Origin: a virus
Direction: 5' to 3' (one strand)
DNA: 14,479 bases
UHGV virus genome: UHGV-0177056
The translations under genes and the position numbers were made by a program. The notes under the pieces were generated by a model. The model was not told the DNA's origin. It saw nothing but the letters and a program-made list of their open reading frames with translations, and ran no database searches. This document shows, in pieces, positions 1-10,246 of this stretch (position 1 is the first letter of the stretch; every line of letters begins with the position of its first letter).

Positions 1-49
1 TGGTTATTGCTGATTAGCTAACAGCACACGCCCCGCCAAAACGAGGCGC

Positions 50-697
50 TTATGCTGATTTCTTGTTTACAGGCTTAGTTTCTTGCTCCGGTGTGACGGG
101 AACGCGATCACCTGGTGTTCCAGCACAGAAAATGGCTTTGGCGCGGCGCAAAATCTCTTTGTCATTTTCCTCATCGCCAGCTAATGCCATGCAAACAGCG
201 TCTTTAAGCGATTGCCTGATGTTCAGGCTTTGAATGGCCTTTCTTTGCTCCTCAAGTTCGCTATCGGCTTGCTTAGTTTGCCTGGTGGGTTGCTGTAGGC
301 GTTCCAAGATTCCTTTAATGCCCATATCGCATATTGCACTTATCAACTGTTCCTTATCTTCTGTGGACGCTCTTTTCAATAACTCGTTAACTAGCTCGTT
401 TGTAATATCGGGAGAAGGCTGCGCTGTTTGATTTGATAGAGAACTTTCTTTGGCGATGGGTTCCTCACCGTAAGCGAGCCAATTTAAGCTCACTTGTTCT
501 TTATCTGAGATAAGGCAAGCTATTTTAAAAGAAGGCTCTGTTCCTTTATGAATGTAGTTGTTTAAGGTTGAAGGGGGGATTCCCCAATCACTCGCAGCAG
601 TTCTGACACTACGGTTACCTATCAGCTTTACTAAACGCTCTCTGAAACTTTCTTTTCCCCGGTCGACAAAAGAAAAAGCATCATCATTTCTAGTCAT
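50..697 (-). CDS. Phage CI-type HTH repressor (occupies the position of the Mu c repressor but with a CI-like N-terminal HTH)
   Basis: 215-aa ORF reading leftward from the operator region. N-terminal segment (SFRERLVKLIGNRSVRTAASDWGIPPSTLNNYIHKGTEP) looks like a phage CI repressor helix-turn-helix. RBS GAGGAAAG about 6 nt upstream of the ATG on the minus strand. Divergent from ner/A/B as in Mu-like phages. Confidence 0.7.
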   Translation of the reverse strand: MTRNDDAFSFVDRGKESFRERLVKLIGNRSVRTAASDWGIPPSTLNNYIHKGTEPSFKIACLISDKEQVSLNWLAYGEEPIAKESSLSNQTAQPSPDITNELVNELLKRASTEDKEQLISAICDMGIKGILERLQQPTRQTKQADSELEEQRKAIQSLNIRQSLKDAVCMALAGDEENDKEILRRAKAIFCAGTPGDRVPVTPEQETKPVNKKSA

Positions 698-879
698 TTT
701 TTCTTTCCTCTATAACTTATTGATTTTAATTACAAAAACCATATAAAGACCAAAAGCAAAAAGAAAATACAAAGAAAGGGCTATTTTTGCTTTACATGAG
801 CTATATATGGATCAATACTTATATCCGAAGGGATAACACGGCGGTGTTATCCGCACGGATAACTTTTAAGGGTAACCTA
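698..879. promoter_or_regulatory. Divergent early regulatory region between repressor and ner (putative operators and promoters)
   Basis: 182-bp AT-rich intergenic region between divergent genes. Contains an A-tract (aaaagcaaaaagaaaatacaaagaaa), a TTTACA -35-like hexamer at 791-796, an IHF-like site ATCAATACTTAT around 811-822, and clustered GGATAAC half-sites at 822-863. Confidence 0.5.
822..863. promoter_or_regulatory. Cluster of GGATAAC inverted and direct half-sites (candidate repressor/Ner operator)
   Basis: Perfect inverted repeat GGATAACAC-GGCG-GTGTTATCC at 831-852, a further GGATAAC at 857-863, and TATCC-GAAG-GGATA at 822-835, all immediately upstream of the ner start. Confidence 0.5.
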
Positions 880-1116
880 ATGATGGTTAGAAATGAAGTA
901 ATGAACAAAGACTGGCACCGCGAGTACATCGTTGCCGCTGTGCACACCAAAGGTTTTACATTGCGTGAACTTTCTGAACGCGCTGGTCTAAAAAAAGACT
1001 CTTTAAAAAATGCACTGTATCGCTCATGCCCTAAATATGAACGCATCATAGCCGATGCTATTGGTGTGGAACCTGCGGAGATCTGGCCAAGCCGGTATGC
1101 CAGTAAGGCGGCGTAA
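880..1116 (+). CDS. ner: Ner-like DNA-binding regulator
   Basis: Translation from ATG 880 (MMVRNEVMNKDWHREYIVAAVHTKGF...EIWPSRYASKAA) matches the Mu Ner / Nlp pattern (DWHR...GLKK...LSNAL...IIA.A....P..IWPSRY). The track ORF starts at 787, but that start would lie across the operator repeats; 880 has an AAGGG RBS-like sequence about 8 nt upstream. Confidence 0.8.
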   Translation: MMVRNEVMNKDWHREYIVAAVHTKGFTLRELSERAGLKKDSLKNALYRSCPKYERIIADAIGVEPAEIWPSRYASKAA

Positions 1117-3158
1117 TGTTTTATTCAGCCAATGAGCTGGCCGGTCTTCCTGGTTTGCCCGGTACAGTTCAGGGGGTGCGCTGGACGCTCAATCGGATCA
1201 CAGAGACGCACCCGGAATGGAAGCGCAAGCGTGAAGGCACCAAAGCATTCGAGTATCACATCGACTGCCTGCCCGCTGAAGCGCAGAAAGTTTTACGTAA
1301 GCGCCTGACCCATCAGGTCCTGGAAGATACGCAACTGCCCGCCGTGGTTGAGCAGAAGGCAGTTAAAAACGTCGCCGTTCGCGATGAACTGGAGGTGATG
1401 GTCAAATGCCCGGAACTGGCATTACGCGAAGTCCAGGCACTGACTGACAAGCAAAAGGCCATCGCTGATGCGCGGATATTGCTGGCTACTGAAGTGCATA
1501 AACTGCGTGAATACGCCGGAATGACAAGGAAGGCCGCGTTAAAGCACATCGTTGATGGTGTGCGCATGGGGGCGTTACCTGACCGCATTATCGAAGCAGC
1601 TAATACTGCAAATGCACGTCAGGGAAAGCGAACCGGTGTCAGCACAGGCAGCCTGGATAGTTGGTACTCCAGCTGGGTGATGGCGCGCGGTGATGCCAAT
1701 CAGTTACTGGCGTTACTGGCTCCCGGTCATCATAAGGGAACACCGTGGGAGCAGGTCTGGTGGTTGAGCGATTTCTTTATGTTCTATCGCTCATGGAAGC
1801 GCCCGACCGTTGAATATGCGTATCGCGAGTTTTCAGCCTGGTGGCATGAAAAACACGCGAACGATGCGGGAATGCTGGCGGCACTGCCTTCAGTTCACGC
1901 AGTAAGACGGGTGTTAAGCAGCGTCCCGGTGATTGTTAAAGAGCGTTTCCGCTCCACAGGTTCAGCCTGGCGTTCGCTCAATCCCTTTGTGCGGCGCGAG
2001 TGGACATCATTACCGGTTAATGCGGTATGGGTCGGGGATGGTCACTGTATGAAAATGACCGCGTTTAACCCCCTGACCGGCAATATTTTCCGGCCAGAAG
2101 TGACGCTGGTTATGGATGCAGGACAACGCTTTATTGTGGGCTGGTCACTGTCCCTGTCGGAGAACGTGATAGCCGTTGCTGATGCGTTACGTTACGGCAT
2201 GGCACAGCACGGGATACCGCTGATTTATTACTCCGATAACGGGGGCGGCGAAAAAAACCTGGTGCTTGATGCCGATATTACCGGGATTCTGCCCCGTCTG
2301 GGTGTGGAACATCACACGGGGATACCAGGTAACCCGCAGGGGCGCGGGGTGATTGAAAGGGTTAACAAGGAAATACCCAAAGACGTGGCCCTGAGTTTCC
2401 AAACGTACTGCGCAAGGGATGCAGACAAGGAAACCGTAATGATGCAGCAACGGATTATGCAGTCAGCCATTAAGGCCACCCACAAAGGGAAAGAGCTGAC
2501 AAAACGGCAGGTTAAGGCGAGGGATGAAATCCCTACCTTTGAGCAACTGATGGCAGCCATAGAGCTGGAGGTCAGACGCTATAACAACCGGCCACACAGC
2601 AGCCTTCCTCGCAAAGAGGATGGCGAGCATTACAGCCCGGCAGCGTATCGCCGGAAACTGATAAAAGAGCAGAATGTTGAAATTGATTTCCTGTCGCCGG
2701 AAGAACTGCATGAAATGTTCAGGCCGGAAGTGACGCGCAAAACATTTCGCGGGGAAATTCAGTTATTCAACAATATTTATTACTCATATGATCTGGCCGC
2801 AGAGCACGGGAATGAAGTCAGGGTCAGTTACGATATTCATGATGCAAACAGCGTCATTGTCCGGCGGGCTGATGGCTCTTATATCTGCGATGCCATCTGG
2901 AACGGTAACAAGGTTGATGCCTTCGCTAAACCAGTTATCGAACAAAAACTGGAGAAACGCGTCAAGGGCCGCATTGCACGGGCCACGCAGAAAATCGAAG
3001 AGGCTAAACGCGAGCTTACCCCGGCCATTACGCAGAAGCCTGACTTTAATCTGGGATATGGACTGGAACGCCTGGAGAAAAAGGAAAAAGAAGAACTTTA
3101 TTTATTCGCATCTGAACGCGAACGCAATTTAAAGAAAAACGGCACAAACAACCGTTAA
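1116..3158 (+). CDS. Mu-type transposase (MuA-like DDE transposase)
   Basis: 680-aa ORF directly after ner with TAATG stop/start overlap. N-terminus (ELAGLPGLPGT..GVRW) resembles the MuA DNA-binding domain; size and position match MuA. Acidic residues in VWVGDGH, YYSDNGG and GVIERVNKE are consistent with a DDE core. Confidence 0.85.
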   Translation: MFYSANELAGLPGLPGTVQGVRWTLNRITETHPEWKRKREGTKAFEYHIDCLPAEAQKVLRKRLTHQVLEDTQLPAVVEQKAVKNVAVRDELEVMVKCPELALREVQALTDKQKAIADARILLATEVHKLREYAGMTRKAALKHIVDGVRMGALPDRIIEAANTANARQGKRTGVSTGSLDSWYSSWVMARGDANQLLALLAPGHHKGTPWEQVWWLSDFFMFYRSWKRPTVEYAYREFSAWWHEKHANDAGMLAALPSVHAVRRVLSSVPVIVKERFRSTGSAWRSLNPFVRREWTSLPVNAVWVGDGHCMKMTAFNPLTGNIFRPEVTLVMDAGQRFIVGWSLSLSENVIAVADALRYGMAQHGIPLIYYSDNGGGEKNLVLDADITGILPRLGVEHHTGIPGNPQGRGVIERVNKEIPKDVALSFQTYCARDADKETVMMQQRIMQSAIKATHKGKELTKRQVKARDEIPTFEQLMAAIELEVRRYNNRPHSSLPRKEDGEHYSPAAYRRKLIKEQNVEIDFLSPEELHEMFRPEVTRKTFRGEIQLFNNIYYSYDLAAEHGNEVRVSYDIHDANSVIVRRADGSYICDAIWNGNKVDAFAKPVIEQKLEKRVKGRIARATQKIEEAKRELTPAITQKPDFNLGYGLERLEKKEKEELYLFASERERNLKKNGTNNR

Positions 3159-3176
3159 TTTAAAAGGTATTTAATT

Positions 3177-4070
3177 ATGAGTTTAATTACGCAATTAAAT
3201 GACGTAATGGCCCGTCGCGGCTATACGCAAACCCACGTCGCCCGTGCTATTGGTCGTAGCAGCGCCGTTATCAACCAGTATTTACAGGGTAAATATCAGG
3301 GCGATATGGCTGATATTGAAGAACGCATTTCTGCCTTTGTGACCCGTGAGCGGGAAAAGGAAAACAGCCGCCGTATTAAAGCGAAATTTGTTGCCACCGG
3401 TATGGCTGCCAAAGGACTGGAGGTGTTGGCCTATGCTCACCTGGAATGTGAAATCTGCGTACTGTATGGCGCGGCAGGTCTTGGCAAAACAATGATTCTG
3501 CGTGAATACGCCGCCAGAAACCGGGATGCGGTCCTGATTGAAGCCGACCCGGGCTATACAGCCAGAACACTGCTTGAGGAGCTGTGCCGCCAGCTGGGGG
3601 TAAAAGTTCGCGGCAATATCCACGAACTGATTGATGCATGTGTGCGAGAACTGCGTGATTCCGGTCGCCTGCTGATGGTGGACGAGGCTGAACTGCTCCC
3701 CTATCGCGCACTGGAGGTTCTGCGCCGTCTGCATGACAAAGCGGGTATCGGGATTGTCCTGGCGGGTATGCCACGCCTTCTGATTAACCTCAAGGGACGT
3801 CGCGGTGAGTTCGCCCAGTTATACAGCCGTGTGGCGCTGGCGCTTAACCTGGGCGATACGCTGTCGCAGGAAGATTTTAACCAGATAGCTACCGGGCTGA
3901 TGCCGGAAGCAGCAGAACCGGAAATCAGCGAGGCGCTCTACGCACGCTCACTGGGTAATGCCCGCCGCCTGTTCAAACTGGCTCGCGGTGTGTACCGGAT
4001 TTGTGATATCAGCGATGCACCGGTCAGTGTGCAGGCCATTGATAAATTCGCAGAAATGTTAATTCACTGA
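3177..4070 (+). CDS. MuB-like transposition ATPase (AAA+ target-DNA activator)
   Basis: 297-aa ORF after the transposase. N-terminal HTH-like segment, Walker A GAAGLGKT, Walker B LLMVDEAE. Position and length match Mu B. Confidence 0.85.
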   Translation: MSLITQLNDVMARRGYTQTHVARAIGRSSAVINQYLQGKYQGDMADIEERISAFVTREREKENSRRIKAKFVATGMAAKGLEVLAYAHLECEICVLYGAAGLGKTMILREYAARNRDAVLIEADPGYTARTLLEELCRQLGVKVRGNIHELIDACVRELRDSGRLLMVDEAELLPYRALEVLRRLHDKAGIGIVLAGMPRLLINLKGRRGEFAQLYSRVALALNLGDTLSQEDFNQIATGLMPEAAEPEISEALYARSLGNARRLFKLARGVYRICDISDAPVSVQAIDKFAEMLIH

Positions 4071-4309
4071 TGGAGAACAAGATGATGGACAAGCAGACCA
4101 TTAACGCCGTCCGTTCCCGTGCCCGTGTGGCCATCCACACCACCGGCGGTCGCGTAACTGGGCAACATCACCGTTTACCTGTGGTTTATGCCTGCCCGCC
4201 CGTGGGCGGCCCTGTATGGCCGGTAACGGAAATCATCCAGACATTCAGCGGCCTGCGCCGCGTGGTGAAAACGTCCTGTATCGACGGCTGCACCGTCGTA
4301 TGGCAATAA
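4070..4309 (+). CDS. Hypothetical small protein (79 aa), early accessory region
   Basis: Only ORF covering this interval; TGATG stop/start overlap with the MuB-like gene. Gly/Pro/Val-rich translation, no recognisable motif. Confidence 0.35.
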   Translation: MENKMMDKQTINAVRSRARVAIHTTGGRVTGQHHRLPVVYACPPVGGPVWPVTEIIQTFSGLRRVVKTSCIDGCTVVWQ

Positions 4310-4321
4310 GAGGAAATCAGA

Positions 4322-4537
4322 ATGGCGGTTAAGTTAGAAGTAATTATCTATACCGATGAAAAAGGCTGTGTTTTAACCCAGACCACGGGGAGTTATTCGA
4401 AGGACGGAGCTTCCGAAAAGGAGTTTCAGGTGGCAACAAGATTACATGATGCTATCAAGGAAACGCTCAGAAATGACTATAACGGCGTGAATCTTTTTTC
4501 TGAAAATGTTGCGCCTCGCGCACATAACACACATTAA
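4322..4537 (+). CDS. Hypothetical small protein (71 aa)
   Basis: Strong RBS AAGAGGAAA 6 nt upstream of the ATG. Same strand and spacing as neighbouring genes. Confidence 0.55.
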   Translation: MAVKLEVIIYTDEKGCVLTQTTGSYSKDGASEKEFQVATRLHDAIKETLRNDYNGVNLFSENVAPRAHNTH

Positions 4538-4566
4538 TCTGTAAATATCACTGAGGTAATTTAATT

Positions 4567-5211
4567 ATGACGACTGAAAATAAAGTTAAGCAATATACAA
4601 AAAATAAAGTGCAGGAAGGCTACTGGGTTGATGCCCGTGGTGTGATGACGCCTGAAAGTCTTATCAAAGATATTGACCGCGACCGTGAGCAGCTGGTCGG
4701 TGAGCTTGTGGAGATGGTGATTGCTGCCTCTGCCTCACTGCGTGAACTGAAACTGCGTGCGTTTGGTGATATTCAGGCATTTATTGACCTGTCGGCGGAG
4801 AAATACGGCGCTGTGAAAGGCGGTAAAAAAGGGAATATCACACTTTACAGCTTTGACGGGCGTTACAAGATTCAGCGCGCCATGCAGGACCGTATCGCGC
4901 TTGATGAACGCATTCAGACCGCGAAGGCACTGATTGATGACTGTCTGGCTGACTGGACGGAAGGAGCGCGCCCTGAAATTAAAGCCATCATCAGTGAAGC
5001 ATTCAGCACGGACAAGGAAGGCAACATTAACACCGGGCGCGTTCTGGCTCTGCGTCGTCTCGATATTACGGAGGAACGCTGGGATAACGCCATGAAACTG
5101 ATTGGTGAAGCCGTCCAGGTAATTGGCAGCAAAAGCTATATCCGCGTGTATGAGCGCGTCGGTGATTCTGCTGAATACCGCGCAATCCCGCTTGATATTG
5201 CAGGGGTTTAA
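4567..5211 (+). CDS. DUF3164-like protein typical of Mu-like phage accessory regions
   Basis: 214-aa ORF with GAGGT RBS. Size and position in a Mu-like early region fit the DUF3164 family; the family assignment is from memory, not a search. Confidence 0.6.
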   Translation: MTTENKVKQYTKNKVQEGYWVDARGVMTPESLIKDIDRDREQLVGELVEMVIAASASLRELKLRAFGDIQAFIDLSAEKYGAVKGGKKGNITLYSFDGRYKIQRAMQDRIALDERIQTAKALIDDCLADWTEGARPEIKAIISEAFSTDKEGNINTGRVLALRRLDITEERWDNAMKLIGEAVQVIGSKSYIRVYERVGDSAEYRAIPLDIAGV

Positions 5212-5212
5212 C

Positions 5213-5446
5213 ATGCATCAGGATATCAAAGAGTACAGGGCCGGGAACCGTTGCGCAGCGTATTCGCTGGGCGCGTCCAGAGCAGAACAACGCGGCGATT
5301 ATGCCGAAGCTGAAAAACTGTGGCGTAAGGCAGCACAAAGCCCGTGTAGTACCCTGCGCCGCATCTGGGCGGAACACCGGGCAGAGTTCTGTGCCAATGC
5401 TCACCTGAAAAGATGGAAGCCGCCTCATGAACGCGAAACGCTTTAA
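5213..5446 (+). CDS. Small ANR-like regulator (78 aa)
   Basis: ATG at 5213 lies 2 nt after the upstream stop (5209-5211), so it is preferred over the track start at 5123, which would overlap the previous gene by 89 nt. Translation (RAEQRGDYAEAEKLWRKAA...RAEFCA) resembles ANR-family small regulators. Confidence 0.5.
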   Translation: MHQDIKEYRAGNRCAAYSLGASRAEQRGDYAEAEKLWRKAAQSPCSTLRRIWAEHRAEFCANAHLKRWKPPHERETL

Positions 5447-5618
5447 TCAGCTATATCCGCCAGGGACTCGCTTCATGCACATTGCACATCGGGCAGTGCG
5501 TGGTGGTCGGGTGGTAAAAACTGTTGCACCTGCCAGAGATTTTAAATGTGGTTGTGTGGTTGAAATTAATGTCGAGCCTTATTTCGTTAAAGTCGAAACA
5601 CTGAAAGCACCGCATTAA
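5427..5618 (+). CDS. Hypothetical small basic protein (63 aa)
   Basis: Start overlaps the end of the previous gene, same strand; no recognisable domain. Confidence 0.4.
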   Translation: MNAKRFNQLYPPGTRFMHIAHRAVRGGRVVKTVAPARDFKCGCVVEINVEPYFVKVETLKAPH

Positions 5619-5647
5619 TTTAATTTGTTTTTAATTGTTATTTAAAA

Positions 5648-5681
5648 CAGGCGTAAACCCGCAGGGGCTGGCTTACGCCTG
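5648..5681 (-). terminator. Putative intrinsic terminator between convergent genes
   Basis: Perfect 9-bp stem CAGGCGTAA (5648-5656) / TTACGCCTG (5673-5681) with a GC-rich loop. On the minus-strand transcript the hairpin is followed by UUUUAAAU, so it would terminate the 5759-5977 gene; it may also act on plus-strand read-through. Confidence 0.5.
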
Positions 5682-5758
5682 AATCTGAGGAAGTTTATTT
5701 ATGAATATTGCTAAGCAAAAAAAATTCGCCCGCGAAATTAATCTGACAATCGTTTGTT

Positions 5759-5977
5759 TTAATCGTCTTGCGACCAGTTCTCAATCGACAGCAGATGTTC
5801 ATCCAGCGCCGCAGCCAGAACGAACTCCCCACGTTCCTGAAGGCCGTGCTGGAAGTTGCGTAATTCAGAATCCAGGGCGCTGAGGTTCAGACAGCCATTT
5901 TCTGAAAGCTGTTTAACCAGAAAGCTCCACGCAGCTTTGTTAGCAGTAATTGCTGCCGCAATTTCATCATCAATCAT
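5759..5977 (-). CDS. Reverse-oriented small acidic protein (72 aa), function unknown
   Basis: Minus-strand ORF with strong RBS (AGGAG, 6-nt spacer) and the downstream hairpin terminator. About 14 acidic versus about 5 basic residues. Only the repressor shares this orientation in the window. Confidence 0.55.
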   Translation of the reverse strand: MIDDEIAAAITANKAAWSFLVKQLSENGCLNLSALDSELRNFQHGLQERGEFVLAAALDEHLLSIENWSQDD

Positions 5978-6065
5978 TTTTTAACTCCTGATTGGGTATG
6001 TTGGGGCAGCGATTATGACAAGTGTTTTGTGGTTATAAGTTGATCAAAAACAATGAGTTACAACC
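5978..6065. promoter_or_regulatory. Divergent intergenic region (candidate promoters for the 5759-5977 gene and the 6066 operon)
   Basis: 88-bp non-coding gap between divergently oriented ORFs; no consensus promoter hexamers could be assigned by eye. Confidence 0.3.
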
Positions 6066-6776
6066 ATGAAAGATAAATACATTGCCAAAATCAAAAAACT
6101 GTTACGCCTTGCCAGAGGAACATCAAGCCCGGAAGAAGCCGCTAACGCTATTGCAAAAGCCCAGGCTTATATGCGCCAGCATGGTATCAGCGAAAACGAC
6201 GCGGAATTGTTCGACATTCAGGAAGCTGCCAGCGCGGGTGCGCCGAGTGACGCCAGTACGCCGCCGCGTTATATGCACATCCTGTGTGACCTGGTCTGTA
6301 AAGCCTTCGGTGTCGAGTGTTACATCTCCGGCGAATACCGGGCTTCTGGTTCACTCAAACGTTACGTGCGTTTTTATGGTCCTGACAGCCGCCCGGAAAT
6401 CGCGGCTTACGCGTTTGATGTGCTTTCCCGTCAGATGATGGCAGAGCGCAAGAAATATCAGGATAAACACTGCAAACGTTGTGGTCCGTCCACGCGGGTA
6501 GCCCGTGGCGACCAGTTCTGCGAAGGCTGGGTCTTTGGTGCCCGTGATGTCATTGCGGTGTATGACGTCTCCCCGGAAGAAAAAAGCCGCCTTGAGCTTT
6601 ACAGAAAGAACCTGCACAGCACTAAGGGACTGCGCGACGGGGATATGCGCACAGCTAAAGCGTGTCGGGGTGCAGAGTTTGCCGCTACTGCCGGTTTTAT
6701 CGCCGGGAAGAACGCCAGGCTGCATCAGGGGGTTAATGGTCAGAGCAACAGACCGCTGGCACTGGGGAGGGTGTAA
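6066..6776 (+). CDS. DUF2786-like phage protein
   Basis: N-terminus KIKKLLRLARGTSSPEEAANAIAKAQAYMRQHGI matches the DUF2786 signature (KI.KLLALA..T.NE.EA..A..KAQELM..H) common in prophages. 236 aa. Confidence 0.7.
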   Translation: MKDKYIAKIKKLLRLARGTSSPEEAANAIAKAQAYMRQHGISENDAELFDIQEAASAGAPSDASTPPRYMHILCDLVCKAFGVECYISGEYRASGSLKRYVRFYGPDSRPEIAAYAFDVLSRQMMAERKKYQDKHCKRCGPSTRVARGDQFCEGWVFGARDVIAVYDVSPEEKSRLELYRKNLHSTKGLRDGDMRTAKACRGAEFAATAGFIAGKNARLHQGVNGQSNRPLALGRV

Positions 6777-6778
6777 CG

Positions 6779-7006
6779 ATGGCTTTTAAACTTCTTAGTG
6801 TTACCGAAGCAATATACCAGCCGCCCGGAGAACGCCACGAATACAGGATGAATGACGGTAGCGCGGTGGTTGAGTTCCCCGGATATCCGGGGGCTTCCCG
6901 GTGGCGGTTCTATGACAGTGTGGGACGTCGGATTATTAAAAGAACCGTGCACAACAATATGAAGGCTGCCGTAGAACGTCATAAGAGAAGGTTTAACTGC
7001 AAATGA
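6779..7006 (+). CDS. Hypothetical protein (75 aa)
   Basis: GGAGGG RBS 8 nt upstream; start 2 nt after the upstream stop (translational coupling). Confidence 0.55.
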   Translation: MAFKLLSVTEAIYQPPGERHEYRMNDGSAVVEFPGYPGASRWRFYDSVGRRIIKRTVHNNMKAAVERHKRRFNCK

Positions 7007-7233
7007 AAATTGAATTTTATGACCATGGGGTCACCGCAACTATCACTATTTCTTGTTGGTTCTGGGAGTTCCACCGTTACTTCAGAGTTGTAGATGCTGC
7101 GCTGTTTGTTGCACCGGGAGCGTTACATCACAGTGGAATCGGTATTGTTATGAACACTGTCATCAGCGGTAAAACGGTCCCGATGTTGCGGGCGTTTAAA
7201 GTGGCAAAACAGGAGGCTGGCAATGGTCATTGA
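7003..7233 (+). CDS. Hypothetical protein (76 aa)
   Basis: ATGA start/stop overlap with the upstream gene; hydrophobic stretches; weak RBS. Confidence 0.4.
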   Translation: MKIEFYDHGVTATITISCWFWEFHRYFRVVDAALFVAPGALHHSGIGIVMNTVISGKTVPMLRAFKVAKQEAGNGH

Positions 7234-7537
7234 TAAAACGATAACGATAGATGTAGCCATGAATACAGGTCTGGCGCTTATCGGTTATGGCTATATCACT
7301 TTTATGTCATTCAGGTGGTTGATTTCTTCGCTCTTTAAGCAGCGTGAAAAACATCGTTGTAAAGACAAGCGCGCGAAGGCGCTAAATGCGTTTAATGACG
7401 CTTTTGATATTGACCATATGCAACAGGGCGACCCCGCACGCGTAATTACCCGGGGAGATATCGTAATTCTTGTGTACCGGAATGAAAAAAATGAACAGGA
7501 GACAACCAGTGAGTCAGCAAACCAGAATAAGCGATAA
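7223..7537 (+). CDS. Hypothetical single-pass membrane protein (104 aa)
   Basis: Strong AGGAGG RBS 6 nt upstream. Hydrophobic segment GLALIGYGYITFMSFRWLISSLF followed by a basic stretch (KQREKHRCKDKRAK), suggesting N-out/C-in topology. Confidence 0.6.
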   Translation: MVIDKTITIDVAMNTGLALIGYGYITFMSFRWLISSLFKQREKHRCKDKRAKALNAFNDAFDIDHMQQGDPARVITRGDIVILVYRNEKNEQETTSESANQNKR

Positions 7538-7673
7538 GAGTCTGACCAGACTGATTGCCGATGCGGACAAGGTGCTGGAGCGGAACTCCCCCGTTGCCGA
7601 TGAGGAATGGTGGCAGGATTTCCGGGCTGCAATGCTGGAACTTCAGGAACGTCGTCGGGAGGTGTTGAAGTGA
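7509..7673 (+). CDS. Hypothetical small protein (54 aa, GTG start)
   Basis: GTG at 7509 preceded by GGAG with a 7-nt spacer. The track ORF begins at TTG 7470, but the RBS supports 7509. Overlaps the upstream gene by 29 nt. Confidence 0.45.
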   Translation: MSQQTRISDKSLTRLIADADKVLERNSPVADEEWWQDFRAAMLELQERRREVLK

Positions 7674-7939
7674 GTGAATTAAAGTGTCGAATTAATGGCA
7701 ATCAGATAGAACCGTGTGCGGTACTGGCAAAAGCACTCGAATATGGAAATCCAGCCTTTAAGAGTAAAGGCATATTTATCCCGGAACGCGTGAATATAAA
7801 CACCGGCGAGCCAGGCTTAGACATTGCTCAAATTCACTCCGGCCAATATGTCGGTCGTGGTGTTGCCATGTGTTTTTGCCCGTTCTGTGGTGAAAGTCTG
7901 AAAACATGGAAAAAGGAGGCAACCAGTGAGCGAGATTAA
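7670..7939 (+). CDS. Small Cys-containing protein, possible zinc ribbon (89 aa, GTG start)
   Basis: GTG at 7670 overlaps the upstream stop (GTGA) with GGGAGG upstream. Cys at residues 6 and 16 plus a C-terminal CFCPFC cluster. The track ORF starts at 7607, but that stretch is Gly/Ser-rich and overlaps the upstream gene. Confidence 0.5.
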   Translation: MSELKCRINGNQIEPCAVLAKALEYGNPAFKSKGIFIPERVNINTGEPGLDIAQIHSGQYVGRGVAMCFCPFCGESLKTWKKEATSERD

Positions 7940-8492
7940 CTATCAGGCACTGCGTGAGGTGGCAGAGGCCGCGAAGGGGGATACGACGTGGCAGAACCTA
8001 CAGGCTTTTCATGCTGCGGCTACGCCGGAGGTTGTGCAGGCGTTGCTGGATGAAAACGAAAGACTGTGTCGCGATCTGATAGCTCGTAATGGTGAGATTG
8101 AAGGGCTTCGGGAGTGGGCAGAAGAACTGGAGGCACGGGAGGTGGCTTTGCCAGTAGCGTCATGCATTGTTGAAGATGGATGCATGTGTGTTGATGGGTT
8201 CAGTGAGTATGTAGGTCACTCGCTATCTGATGGAATGCATGAGCTTTATGCTGCCCCGCCAGCGTCGGTAGTGCCGGAAGGACTAGTTAAAGCAGTGCGT
8301 TTCTATGAACAGGTATCGCTACACAGACCGGCGAACTGTCCGATGGTCTGGTTTTTAACGGCACCATTCATAAAAACTTTGAGCTGCGTCTGCCGGTCAT
8401 GCGTGATAACGGGCAGGCACTGGAAGAAACTGAAGAACGCTTTCAGACAGTGGACGGCTTCGCGGCGGATTATTACTACCGCTGTGCGGTAA
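7926..8492 (+). CDS. ead/Ea22-like protein, N-terminal region; C-terminal ~60 codons of the ORF are of doubtful coding nature
   Basis: GTG start with GGAGG RBS. N-terminus MSEINYQALREVAEAAKGDTTW resembles the lambdoid Ea22/ead family start (..QALREAAEKAT.GEW). After about 8300 the translation turns Cys/Arg-rich and non-protein-like, while the chaperone-like frame opens. Confidence 0.5.
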   Translation: MSEINYQALREVAEAAKGDTTWQNLQAFHAAATPEVVQALLDENERLCRDLIARNGEIEGLREWAEELEAREVALPVASCIVEDGCMCVDGFSEYVGHSLSDGMHELYAAPPASVVPEGLVKAVRFYEQVSLHRPANCPMVWFLTAPFIKTLSCVCRSCVITGRHWKKLKNAFRQWTASRRIITTAVR

Positions 8493-8689
8493 TGGCGGCA
8501 ACGCTGGTCCGTCTGGGGGATATTCCGCAGGAAGAACTGACGGCGGAGCTGTTGCACGACAACATGACGCCGGAAGATTTTAATATTCTGCTGGCATCAC
8601 GCAACGTCCTGAAGGTAAAGCGGAGCGGCGGGAATCCCGGCTCGCCGGACTCCGGCTCGCAGTCCTTATCCTCGGGCGCTACGGAATAA
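8309..8689 (+). pseudogene. Tail assembly chaperone-like reading frame lacking an N-terminal start (5'-truncated, or expressed from internal ATG 8399)
   Basis: Frame is open from 8309 with protein-like translation (LVFNGTIHKNFELRLPVMRDNGQALEE...LVRLGDIPQEELTAELLHDNMTPEDFNILLA), but no ATG/GTG/TTG occurs before 8399. Position immediately upstream of the tape measure is typical of a chaperone. Family resemblance is by pattern only. Confidence 0.45.
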
Positions 8690-8703
8690 CTGAAGAACAA
8701 ATC

Positions 8704-8862
8704 ATGACCATGAGCCGTCCCGAGCTGGACGGCTGGCTTGCCGCCGTTGACAGGCTGAACGGCGGCGGCTCAGGAAGAAAGGACACCTCACAGACCACCC
8801 GCCAGTCATTTAAATCCCTCAGAAAGAAACGCAGAAAAGGTAAACAGAAAAATGGCCGGTAA
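8704..8862 (+). CDS. Small ORF in the -1 frame relative to the chaperone-like gene (possible frameshift extension or independent small basic protein)
   Basis: The -1 frame is open from 8584 through 8862, overlapping the chaperone 3' end and the tape measure start. ATG at 8704; translation MTMSRPELDGWLAAVDRLNGG... with a Lys/Arg-rich C-terminus. This geometry matches chaperone long-form arrangements. Confidence 0.35.
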   Translation: MTMSRPELDGWLAAVDRLNGGGSGRKDTSQTTRQSFKSLRKKRRKGKQKNGR

Positions 8863-10246
8863 TTTCAAAGTTGGCATGACCCTGACTGCGAAGGACGAAG
8901 CCTCGCAGGTTCTGGAAAAGGGACAAAAACAGGTTATCAAAGCCACCGAAGGTGTAACAAAGGCAACCCGGAAGGCAGGCGCAGAGCAGACGCGTACCGG
9001 GCAGGAAAGCGTTAACAGCACGAAAAAGGCGGCAAAAGAGATACAGCGTGCCGCCCGTGCCCGGGAAACGCTCGGTATTCGTGCAGAACGCGAGATCCGG
9101 CGTGAAATTTATCAGACGGTTGCCAGCTATAACCGTCTGGCCCGCGCCGGTTTTGAATCTGCGCAGGAGCAGGAGCGCGCCATGCAGGCCACCCGGGAAA
9201 AAGCCCGGGCACTCAAGCGTGAACTGGATGGCGTCACTCAGGCTCAGATGAAGATGGCGAAAACGCCTGTTATCCCTGAACGGGGGCGTTTTGCCCGTGC
9301 GGCTGCATTTGGCGGGAATGCCGTGACAATAGGCGGCGGAATTATGGCAGGGGCCGCCATTATGACGCAACCAGTCAGAAATCAAATGAGTTATGAACGT
9401 CAGCTCAGCATGATGGCGAACACGGCGTTCAGTGATGGTGGTCTGGAAGGCAGGCAGTTTGGGCGTGAAAAGCTGAAAAACAGTATCCGCGCGGCGGTAA
9501 CGTATGGTGGCGGAACGAAAGAGGATGCAGCTGAAGCAATGAATGAGATGTTGGCCAGCGGCGCTTTTTCCTGGGATACCGCGAATAATCTCTTACCGCA
9601 GATTATGAAATTTGCTACTGCATCCGGCGCATCTCCACGCGATCTGGTCACTATGGCGGCCAAAGCTAAACAAACATTTGGACTGACAGATGACGACCTC
9701 CCGGCCATGTTTAATATGGCTGTCGCAGCAGGTAAAGCGGGTAATTTTGAGCTACGGGATATGGCGGAATATCTTGGACCTCAGATGGCGTTAGCTGGTA
9801 ACGCCGGAATGAAAGGACTGGATGGACTCCAGAAATTACTGGCATTTAATGAGGTCGCAGGGATTGCCGCAGGCAGCAGCAGTGAAGCAGGTAATAACGT
9901 TGTAAACCTGCTGGCCAAACTTTTCAGTAGTGAATCAGCAACAAGGGCGAAAAGCATCACGATTGATGGCAAAGGTATTGATCTACCTGGTACGTTGACC
10001 CGAGCTATGGAAAACGGCATTGATCCGATAGAAGCATTTTCACGCCTCACTGATAAAGTCACCGCGAACAACAAACAATATCAGGAGCTTCAGAAGCGTC
10101 TGGCAGCAACAAAAGACAAAGGCCAGCAGGACAAAATCCTAGAGTCTATGGCGAAAATTCTTGAGGGGTTCGGTGTTGGTGAGCTTGTTGGTGATATGCA
10201 GGCACTGAAGGCAATCCTGGCTTACTGCACCTTTAAATACCGTTAA
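8852..10246 (+). CDS. Tail tape measure protein (short, 464 aa)
   Basis: Coiled-coil-like Ala/Lys/Glu/Arg-rich N-terminus, Gly/Ala-rich hydrophobic segment (AAAFGGNAVTIGGGIMAGAAIM), and a core-like motif FELRDMAEYLGPQMALAGNAGMKGLDGLQKLLAFNEVAGIAAGSSSEAGNNVVNLLAKL. Position is upstream of the baseplate hub genes. Confidence 0.8.
   Translation: MAGNFKVGMTLTAKDEASQVLEKGQKQVIKATEGVTKATRKAGAEQTRTGQESVNSTKKAAKEIQRAARARETLGIRAEREIRREIYQTVASYNRLARAGFESAQEQERAMQATREKARALKRELDGVTQAQMKMAKTPVIPERGRFARAAAFGGNAVTIGGGIMAGAAIMTQPVRNQMSYERQLSMMANTAFSDGGLEGRQFGREKLKNSIRAAVTYGGGTKEDAAEAMNEMLASGAFSWDTANNLLPQIMKFATASGASPRDLVTMAAKAKQTFGLTDDDLPAMFNMAVAAGKAGNFELRDMAEYLGPQMALAGNAGMKGLDGLQKLLAFNEVAGIAAGSSSEAGNNVVNLLAKLFSSESATRAKSITIDGKGIDLPGTLTRAMENGIDPIEAFSRLTDKVTANNKQYQELQKRLAATKDKGQQDKILESMAKILEGFGVGELVGDMQALKAILAYCTFKYR

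Follow-up and report, generated by a model that had tools for sequence, protein, structure and literature searches.

A repeated Shine-Dalgarno/GTG junction in a Mu-like prophage as a probable portable gene boundary of temperate Escherichia phages

Introduction

Phage mosaicism has been debated for decades, with short conserved linkers on one side and random joining followed by selection on the other. 'Linker' sequences were reportedly put forward by Susskind and Botstein in 1978, and Clark et al. (2001; HK620) are said to have described short conserved 'boundary sequences' in lambdoid phages (both summarised in PMC3233612 and PMC3029335). One reason why the debate is still open is that clear linkers are rare. 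Here we describe a 16-nt junction that occurs twice, as J1 and J2, at gene starts within a string of small open reading frames (ORFs) in the virus genome UHGV-0177056; the whole stretch of DNA that was analysed comprises 14,479 nt and is referred to as the window. We consider it likely that J1/J2 is a portable translation-start junction that serves the exchange of accessory-gene cassettes by short-homology recombination in temperate phages of Escherichia and close relatives.

The notion that boundary sequences may act as recombination linkers is long-standing, and few clear cases of it are available (PMC3233612, PMC3029335, PMC2839356). In the PeSL (early promoter/stem-loop) cassettes of T4-type phages, repeats flank small genes in plastic regions, and insertion, deletion and replacement of these genes by recombination between the repeats have been proposed (PMC2839356, PMC4122927). 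The start-associated sequence (SAS) of Cluster K mycobacteriophages is 13 bp long, is present in 11-19 copies per genome, mostly before an ATG, and is a feature of this one phage cluster; no gene-shuffling role has been shown for it (PMC3203893). Finally, the ea22 genes of lambda and Shiga toxin (Stx) phages share an N-terminal segment, which is followed by unrelated C-terminal domains and a common K/RGE ending (PMC7093339, PMC10834534).

Results

The repeated junction and its genes

Within the window the motif occupies positions 7498-7513 (J1, GGAGACAACCAGTGAG) and 7915-7930 (J2, GGAGGCAACCAGTGAG) of the plus strand, and both coordinates and sequences are exactly as given in a first-pass annotation made from the DNA letters alone. 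J1 and J2 are identical at 15 of 16 positions, or at 16 of 17 when the A before them is counted. J1 consists of the Shine-Dalgarno (SD) sequence GGAG, a 7-nt spacer, the GTG start codon (7509-7511) of a 54-aa gene (VSQQTRISDK..., 7509-7673, plus strand) and the AG of codon 2, and the last 13 codons of the preceding DUF4752 gene (104 aa, 7223-7537, plus strand; Pfam PF15944, E=1.5e-38), which ends in ...NEQETTSESANQNKR, run through it. Likewise, J2 combines the SD sequence AAGGAGG, which begins at 7913, a 6-nt spacer (CAACCA), and the GTG (7926-7928) and AG of codon 2 of an Ead/Ea22-like gene (7926-8492, plus strand; Pfam PF13935, 58.7 bits against a gathering cut-off of 27), whose orthologue in the prophage of E. 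coli E2348/69 is named ead/Ea22-like in RefSeq. J2 is traversed by the last 8 codons of an 89-aa gene (VSELKCRING...CPFCGESLKTWKKEATSERD, 7670-7939, plus strand). The ending E(T/A)TSE(S/R), which had been assigned to the two upstream genes, is not their C-terminus, as the tails continue to ...ETTSESANQNKR (stop codon 7535-7537) and ...EATSERD (stop codon 7937-7939).

The GTG-encoded Val-Ser starts proposed for the genes at 7509 and 7926 stood up to comparison, but their number did not, since a third gene, the 89-aa gene at 7670, also starts with GTG-AGY. All three GTG starts are also annotated in RefSeq E2348/69, and there are homologues of the 89-aa and Ea22 genes that have ATG at the same start position. 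A nearby upstream ATG, at 7491 of the window, does not share the reading frame of the 54-aa gene in the other J1 allele described below, so that the GTG is the start of this gene. Each ORF of the string matches a phage protein family of the PHROG collection over its full length, the 54-aa protein with residues 1-51 on positions 1-51 of the 56-position profile of phrog_14672 (E=1.5e-31) and the 89-aa protein on phrog_4030 (E=3e-29). The ratio of non-synonymous to synonymous substitution rates (dN/dS) is 0.17 for the 54-aa gene (versus L125, a related locus) and 0.07-0.15 for the 89-aa gene. Given the full-length PHROG matches, dN/dS values of 0.07-0.17, the RefSeq starts and the ATG of homologues at the same position, the GTG ORFs are evidently real genes with those starts.

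As a bare repeat within the window alone, the J1/J2 pair is not exceptional: 9 separate pairs of 16-mers with at most one mismatch are present as compared to 1.2 in dinucleotide shuffles, so that 8 others match equally well. What makes J1/J2 distinctive is the same register at consecutive gene starts together with the comparative evidence. This evidence also decides about a chance resemblance of two ribosome-binding sites, in which GGAG and GTG are functionally constrained anyway and which the statistics within the window could not reject by themselves. An expected count for the pair is partly circular, its pattern having been taken from the window. Both copies belong to a sequence that stands at gene starts in at least 120 viral contigs, with the spacer and flanking bases matching too, and in strain 160-11H1 J1 is identical to J2 within a repeat that matches at 25 of 26 nt; chance is refuted by this comparison and has next to no probability left. 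The same holds for an in-situ tandem duplication of a gene cassette within the prophage. Two direct repeats 417 nt apart on the same strand are what a duplication would leave, but no alignment is obtained between the DUF4752 and 89-aa proteins, that between the 54-aa and Ea22-like proteins has E=5 only, and all four flanking genes belong to different PHROG and Pfam families. The flanking genes are thus not paralogous and only the junction is repeated, which refutes duplication. Of the two processes that had been suggested for the cassettes, exchange or duplication, exchange is the one that the comparisons below bear out, since the cassettes vary in relatives.

Occurrence of the motif in other phages

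A scan of IMG/VR with the exact motif GGAGRCAACCAGTGAG yielded at least 130 copies in at least 120 contigs, with 1-2 copies per contig. The numbers of contexts, groups and reading frames given in this paragraph refer to the matches listed. They comprise 128 unique contexts, 111 of which have ORFs on both sides, and clustering of these 111 resulted in 14 upstream and 16 downstream clusters that occur in 27 combinations; about 12 upstream and 14 downstream groups of unrelated genes are left once contigs L019 and L030, which look like chance matches, are removed. Ead/Ea22-type genes upstream of the motif are followed by 7 different downstream groups and DUF2737 genes by 6, and Ea22-type genes downstream of it are preceded by 9 upstream groups. 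When 7,503 pairs of contexts were compared, 6,628 turned out to be unrelated on both flanks, with an identical island of 22 nt (median; CGCAAAGGAGGCAACCAGTGAG) between them, and the remaining pairs share the upstream flank only (369), the downstream flank only (452) or both (54). Upstream genes read the motif in two frames. The first gives the ending ...LRKGGNQ, whose stop codon TGA overlaps the GTG (99 copies, from Ea22-like C-termini and DUF2737), and the second gives ...E(A/T)TSE.. (55 copies, including both copies of the window). This use of two frames indicates that conservation acts at the nucleotide (DNA or RNA) level and not on a protein tail.

The genes that begin at the motif's GTG are mostly Ead/Ea22-like (VS[EK]I[ND]YQALRE...). 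Other downstream families are DUF7446, DUF7739, a 335-aa PAPS reductase, phrog_4030 (homologues of the 89-aa protein) and phrog_14672 (the 54/124-aa family), and at least six have no Pfam match. In at least 10 contigs a single cassette is enclosed by two exact motif copies spaced 241-1058 nt apart, for example DUF7446 at 241 nt, Ea22-like genes at 584-761 nt and the PAPS reductase at 1054 nt. Mu-like (the window), P1-like (P7, SJ46) and lambdoid (mEp460) phages carry the motif itself or near-copies, those of P7 having 1-2 mismatches. An exact 18-mer gave 21 matches in 185,579 species representatives, which is near the chance number and makes this search too coarse for prevalence; 2 of the matches are in Escherichia. 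A megablast search with 60 nt around J2 hit 85 E. coli genomes, a number that reflects the reduced sensitivity for short queries and is no estimate of prevalence. Judged from these sequences, the 18-mer appears to have a narrow host range that is essentially confined to Escherichia.

In the Hendrix model, neighbours are joined non-homologously at gene boundaries by random illegitimate recombination and then selected, and the motif would simply be the 3' or 5' end of Ead/Ea22-like genes. It is true that most motif copies have an Ea22-like gene as a neighbour on one side or both, and many other mosaic boundaries in phages have no conserved sequences (PMC3233612; PMC3029335). Joints with no Ea22 gene on either side nevertheless exist, as DUF2737 is joined to phrog_4030, DUF7446, DUF7739 or others and DUF4752 to the 54-aa gene. 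Moreover, all downstream genes have GTG-AG in common, and the upstream genes have their last codons, in one of the two frames, in common, which indicates that the breakpoints lie within the shared sequence and not randomly beside it. We therefore regard random joining as an improbable source of these boundaries.

Samples selected independently of the motif

The 89-aa family was sampled by protein similarity, and in the 45 homologous loci obtained the gene stands behind 7 or more different 5' leaders and ahead of several different 3' neighbours; the motif leader is itself combined with five different sequences further upstream. In many phages the 89-aa gene lies between two motif copies, and in P7, where upf87.4 is the homologue of the 89-aa protein, it lies between two near-copies with 1-2 mismatches. 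Ea22 5' ends were likewise collected by protein. Among 27 unique ends, 11 have the exact motif, 7 have it with one mismatch and 9 have unrelated leaders, all of these with ATG. J2 thus is the canonical leader of Ead/Ea22-like genes, and J1 is an Ea22-type leader that stands ahead of a non-Ea22 gene, the 54-aa gene.

These leaders also bear on the main rival of exchange, namely that a start-associated leader is kept by selection, as has been proposed for SAS, either as an initiation signal in which a very strong SD sequence offsets the GTG or as a binding site for a phage or host factor or an RNA, with recombination being incidental. A perfect AAGGAGG stands at the optimal distance of 6 nt from a weak GTG in a C/A-rich, unpaired stretch, the conservation reaches past the bases that pair with 16S rRNA, as it does in SAS (PMC3203893), and it fits that the Ea22 leaders lacking the motif use ATG throughout. 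Relatives, however, tolerate changes in the SD sequence and in the spacer (GGGGACAACC, GGAGGCAGCC, GGAGGATAAC, GGGAGCAATC), the same genes are found behind quite different leaders, and a genome has 1-2 motif copies as opposed to the 11-19 of SAS. The near-restriction of the 18-mer to Escherichia and the tolerated variants fit a recent spread better than an old functional signal, and selection on the leader alone leaves the sharp reassortment on both sides unexplained. A selected leader is compatible with a portable junction; in place of it, we consider it unlikely.

As controls we used other junctions of the same operon, and these are not promiscuous. J0, the leader of DUF4752, was found in 9 contigs and always with the same neighbours (1 upstream and 1 downstream group), the alternative J1 allele in 16 contigs with 2 upstream partners and 1 downstream partner, and J3, where the 54-aa gene meets the 89-aa gene, in 18 contigs, one gene predominating upstream and three occurring downstream. 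When 1.9 Mb of fetched loci were scanned blindly for 16-mers whose flanks are numerous and unrelated, the J1/J2 motif came out first. The scan also returned a second promiscuous junction that had not been selected for, GGCATTCGCATCAAAGGAGAGTGATATG, with 39 unique contexts and 13 upstream and 14 downstream groups in 34 combinations. This junction is made up of the ...GIRIKGE end of Ea22-like genes and the SD sequence and ATG of the next gene, and its ending corresponds to the 'K/RGE' ending described for these proteins (PMC7093339). An example outside the window is located at about 3846-3875 of the phage P7 locus (L197), just before upf89.0. One downstream family (...AITKERIELF...) occurs behind both junctions, starting with GTG at one and with ATG at the other.

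A short conserved core amid variable cassettes, with direct repeats flanking single genes, could also be the recognition site of a recombinase in a dedicated, integron-like site-specific cassette system, and the PeSL cassettes of T4-type phages do form circles (PMC2839356). Integron attC sites are marked by hairpin-forming inverted repeats and an adjacent integrase, neither of which was found at the junction: the motif has no inverted-repeat or hairpin potential, and the neighbouring genes encode Mu transposase A, the B ATPase and small DUF proteins, with no integron integrase among them. The Mu-like, P1-like and lambdoid contexts have no recombinase gene in common, and the second junction, a different sequence, behaves in the same way, which suggests a general process rather than one that is site-specific. 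Taken together, we hold a dedicated system to be very unlikely. A structured RNA element was rejected as well, as Rfam gave no match anywhere in the window and the junction RNA is predicted to be unstructured, its folds being no more stable than those of shuffles (z = 0.35-0.77).

Variation of the interval in related prophages

The interval from DUF4752 to Ead/Ea22 contains the 54-aa and 89-aa genes in the window and in E2348/69, a single 124-aa gene in strain 160-11H1 and a different, 108-aa gene in strain tcmA_3. In strain 160-11H1 a direct repeat of 26 nt, with 1 mismatch, encloses the gene. Thus, the comparison with related prophages that had been proposed as a check of the first-pass annotation confirms that the cassettes between the junctions do vary. 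The conservation expected of the motif in relatives was seen for J2, which is conserved in the Mu-like relatives, but not for J1, which is polymorphic, most relatives carrying GGAGGCGGCGCAGTGAAC instead.

Two J1 alleles occur at DUF4752 loci, the motif allele being in the minority. The two are set apart by 5 substitutions and 1 indel, all within 14 nt, and with the other allele the DUF4752 tail becomes ...NEQEAAQ (96-aa form). Upstream and downstream haplotypes are combined around J1 in all four possible ways. A gene conversion patch would be one way to account for the allele difference, and we do not claim it as proven.

Prophage setting and neighbouring genes

Positions 1-8315 of the window are 97.6% identical to the Mu-like prophage of E. 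coli E2348/69, which is inserted in eutC. The window is the left part of a degraded Mu-like transposable prophage, with the junctions located in its early region. The gene order in RefSeq E2348/69 is repressor-like helix-turn-helix protein, Mu-type transposase, AAA ATPase, DUF3164, DUF2786, small genes and ead/Ea22-like. According to this annotation the early accessory region lies downstream of the genes for transposase A and the B-type ATPase and upstream of Mor, all on the same strand; in the window itself the Mor side of the region is deleted, as the comparison with the E2348/69 prophage reveals. By position, we take the run of small genes to correspond to the semi-essential early region that Mu has between B and mor.

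The string of small ORFs had been described as overlapping and as a single operon, and both descriptions agree with our results. The ORFs are real and lie on one strand, successive overlaps amount to 4 (ATGA), 11, 29, 4 (GTGA) and 14 nt, and GGAG or GGAGG precedes each start by 6-8 nt. In the region 5600-8900 no sigma-70-like promoter site was found where 3.2 were expected, and the eight terminator-like sites are weak and all inside ORFs. One strand, overlapping ORFs and the lack of promoter-like sites fit one early operon, in which the ORFs may well be translationally coupled.

The first ORF of the string (75 aa, ATG, 6779-7006, plus strand; phrog_9400 over its full length, E=1.6e-39) starts 2 nt past the stop codon of a DUF2786/DUF7168 gene (6066-6776); it is unannotated in RefSeq E2348/69 and is probably a missed gene there. 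It overlaps by ATGA with the second ORF (76 aa, ATG, 7003-7233, plus strand; phrog_1001, E=4e-29; WP_000687524.1 in E2348/69). The SD-containing 10-mer AACAGGAGGC stands ahead of the DUF4752 start in the J0 leader region (7208-7217, plus strand) and recurs with one change, as AACAGGAGAC, at the end of the DUF4752 gene (7494-7503), so that this gene is bracketed by two copies of AACAGGAG[G/A]C. In 7 contexts from related contigs the 76-aa homologue of the second ORF is joined directly to the 54-aa gene via the 10-mer, with DUF4752 exactly absent, which we regard as an instance, on a smaller scale and in this operon too, of the exchange proposed for J1/J2.

In the 54-aa gene the first ~60 nt (7509-7570) are kept in all relatives, but in many E. 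coli genomes homology ends at 7569/7570, and the gene then runs on as a diverged version, sometimes of 124 aa. A conserved 5' end with a variable body is the same pattern as in the Ea22 genes. J3 (GGGAGGTGTTGAAGTGAG, 7657-7674, plus strand) comprises an SD sequence, a spacer and the GTG (7670) of the 89-aa gene, which overlaps the TGA (7671-7673) of the 54-aa gene. Its reassortment is limited, the same 54-aa gene being found upstream of three different genes that all start right after GTGAG. The small proteins have no match in NCBIfam and are given only DUF names by Pfam, and no relative with a solved structure was found for the 89-aa protein.

Compared with E2348/69 the window carries two deletions. 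The first, of ~16.6 kb at 8314-8315, reaches from the interior of the ead/Ea22-like gene as far as a small tail gene, with the loss of mor and of the lysis, terminase, head and sheath genes; the second, of ~1.37 kb at 10222-10225, joins the tape-measure gene to the DNA-circularization gene. These deletions indicate that the prophage is defective and that ORF 7926-8492 is chimeric. The homology of this ORF to E2348/69 switches at 8314/8315, so the original Ead/Ea22-like gene extends only to ~8315 and the remainder is tail-region DNA fused to it by the deletion. The 3' end of the chimeric ORF is overlapped by ORF 8399-8689, which matches phrog_508, 'tail assembly chaperone' (E=1e-25), and with which the retained tail region starts. 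In E2348/69 the homologous prophage splits eutC, of which partial fragments are present at both ends (L001, 612-1049; L220, 19662-20135); the element therefore sits within the ethanolamine-utilisation operon there.

Discussion

The distribution of J1/J2 suggests how a short sequence may keep an operon intact during gene exchange. The proposed unit spans ~16-22 nt, (CGCAA)AGGAG[G/A]CAACCAGTGAG, and would supply any downstream gene with a strong SD sequence (AAGGAGG), an unstructured, C/A-rich spacer of 6 nt, the GTG start codon and the beginning of a Ser codon. To any upstream gene it would supply the last codons and, directly or shortly after, the stop codon. A crossover inside the unit, either between two phages or between two copies within one genome, would then produce two intact and expressed genes, and cassettes could be gained, lost or swapped while the operon remains unbroken. 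In the window, the J1 leader would have replaced the leader that the 54-aa gene has in most relatives, thereby shifting the frame of the DUF4752 tail, and the 54-aa and 89-aa genes would form a two-gene cassette between direct repeats. Exchange could proceed by homologous or short-homology recombination, for instance with annealing proteins of the Red-beta/RecT type from co-resident prophages. As breakpoints are sharp within 16-22 nt, GTG-AG is common to the downstream genes and the upstream tails are encoded by the junction, we favour exchange within shared sequence over random joining.

Several points weigh against a portable junction. The evidence is comparative throughout, so that recombination within the junction is deduced from sequence, and in the exact-motif sample the 16 core bases are identical by construction; the evidence free of this bias consists of the ~6 extra shared bases, the diversity of the flanks, and the samples chosen independently of the motif, i.e. 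the 89-aa family and the Ea22 5' ends. Efficient pairing reportedly requires a minimum of 23-27 bp with Red-beta and of 31-34 bp with RecA (PMC3945230). With 22 nt, the island comes close to the Red-beta minimum, at or just below it, and exchange at joints lacking Ea22 genes would be inefficient; next to Ea22 genes the conserved block is longer than this. A known annealing recombinase is missing from the genes of the Mu-like element, which would have to rely on the host or on other prophages for helper functions. The constancy of the sequence could also be due to selection for a translation start that is efficient or regulated. Finally, the J1 motif allele is linked to one DUF4752 haplotype, which is ~10% diverged from the other, and owing to this linkage the allele difference could be a local mutation cluster instead of a converted patch.

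A bolder extension would be that the J1/J2 motif and the second junction belong to a small, shared set of translation-start linkers, so that the accessory early regions of Mu-like, P1-like and lambdoid E. coli phages draw on a common cassette pool. Cassettes might move as excised circles or via a dedicated helper factor, which would amount to integron-like exchange without an integrase. We mention this as a speculation with little probability.

The portable junction matters for the question of mosaicism as it is short, exactly defined, abundant and common to phages of differing lifestyles, and as it adjoins small genes that are being reshuffled. With a junction of the J1/J2 type the linker model becomes directly testable. 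For annotation, GTG-AGY starts behind a J1/J2 leader should be treated as genuine, and the C-terminal tails upstream of it (...KGGNQ, ...EATSE..) as encoded by the junction and not as functional motifs.

How does the junction compare to the systems described before? Conserved boundary sequences and Ea22 mosaicism are already known; a full-text literature search with the motif string, which did not cover the examples of Clark et al. (2001), gave no match and hence no earlier description of the J1/J2 sequence. Like the ea22 genes of lambda and Stx phages, the gene behind J2 is Ead/Ea22-like. The ea22 papers treat mosaicism at the level of the protein, whereas here the conserved ends are nucleotide junctions common to unrelated neighbours.

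As in the PeSL arrangement, single small genes lie between direct repeats and are found in some relatives but not in others. PeSLs, however, consist of an early promoter and a stem-loop terminator, are ~50 bp or more in length and create transcriptionally autonomous cassettes; J1/J2 has neither a promoter-like site nor a hairpin and would act within an operon, at the level of translation. With SAS the junction shares an SD-containing repeat near the starts of different gene families, conserved beyond the bases that pair with rRNA, and SAS also sometimes holds the upstream stop codon and lies near non-structural genes. Unlike SAS, J1/J2 includes the start codon and part of codon 2, has 1-2 copies per genome, occurs in several phage types and marks points of reassortment.

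The closest counterparts are the linker and boundary sequences, with which J1/J2 shares a short conserved stretch at a gene boundary, non-homologous flanks across phages and an exchange that keeps genes expressed. Its unrelated flanks, the combinatorial left and right modules and its expression-preserving position at a gene boundary are those expected of a linker, and the motif thus appears to be a concrete example of the 'linker' sequences long proposed for mosaic phage genomes. It differs from earlier linker reports in being defined and counted, as a 16-22-nt SD and GTG unit that joins ~12 upstream to 14 downstream groups among the matches listed and is read in two upstream frames. In contrast to the boundary sequences of lambdoid phages, it also crosses phage types, being found in Mu-like, P1-like and lambdoid genomes.

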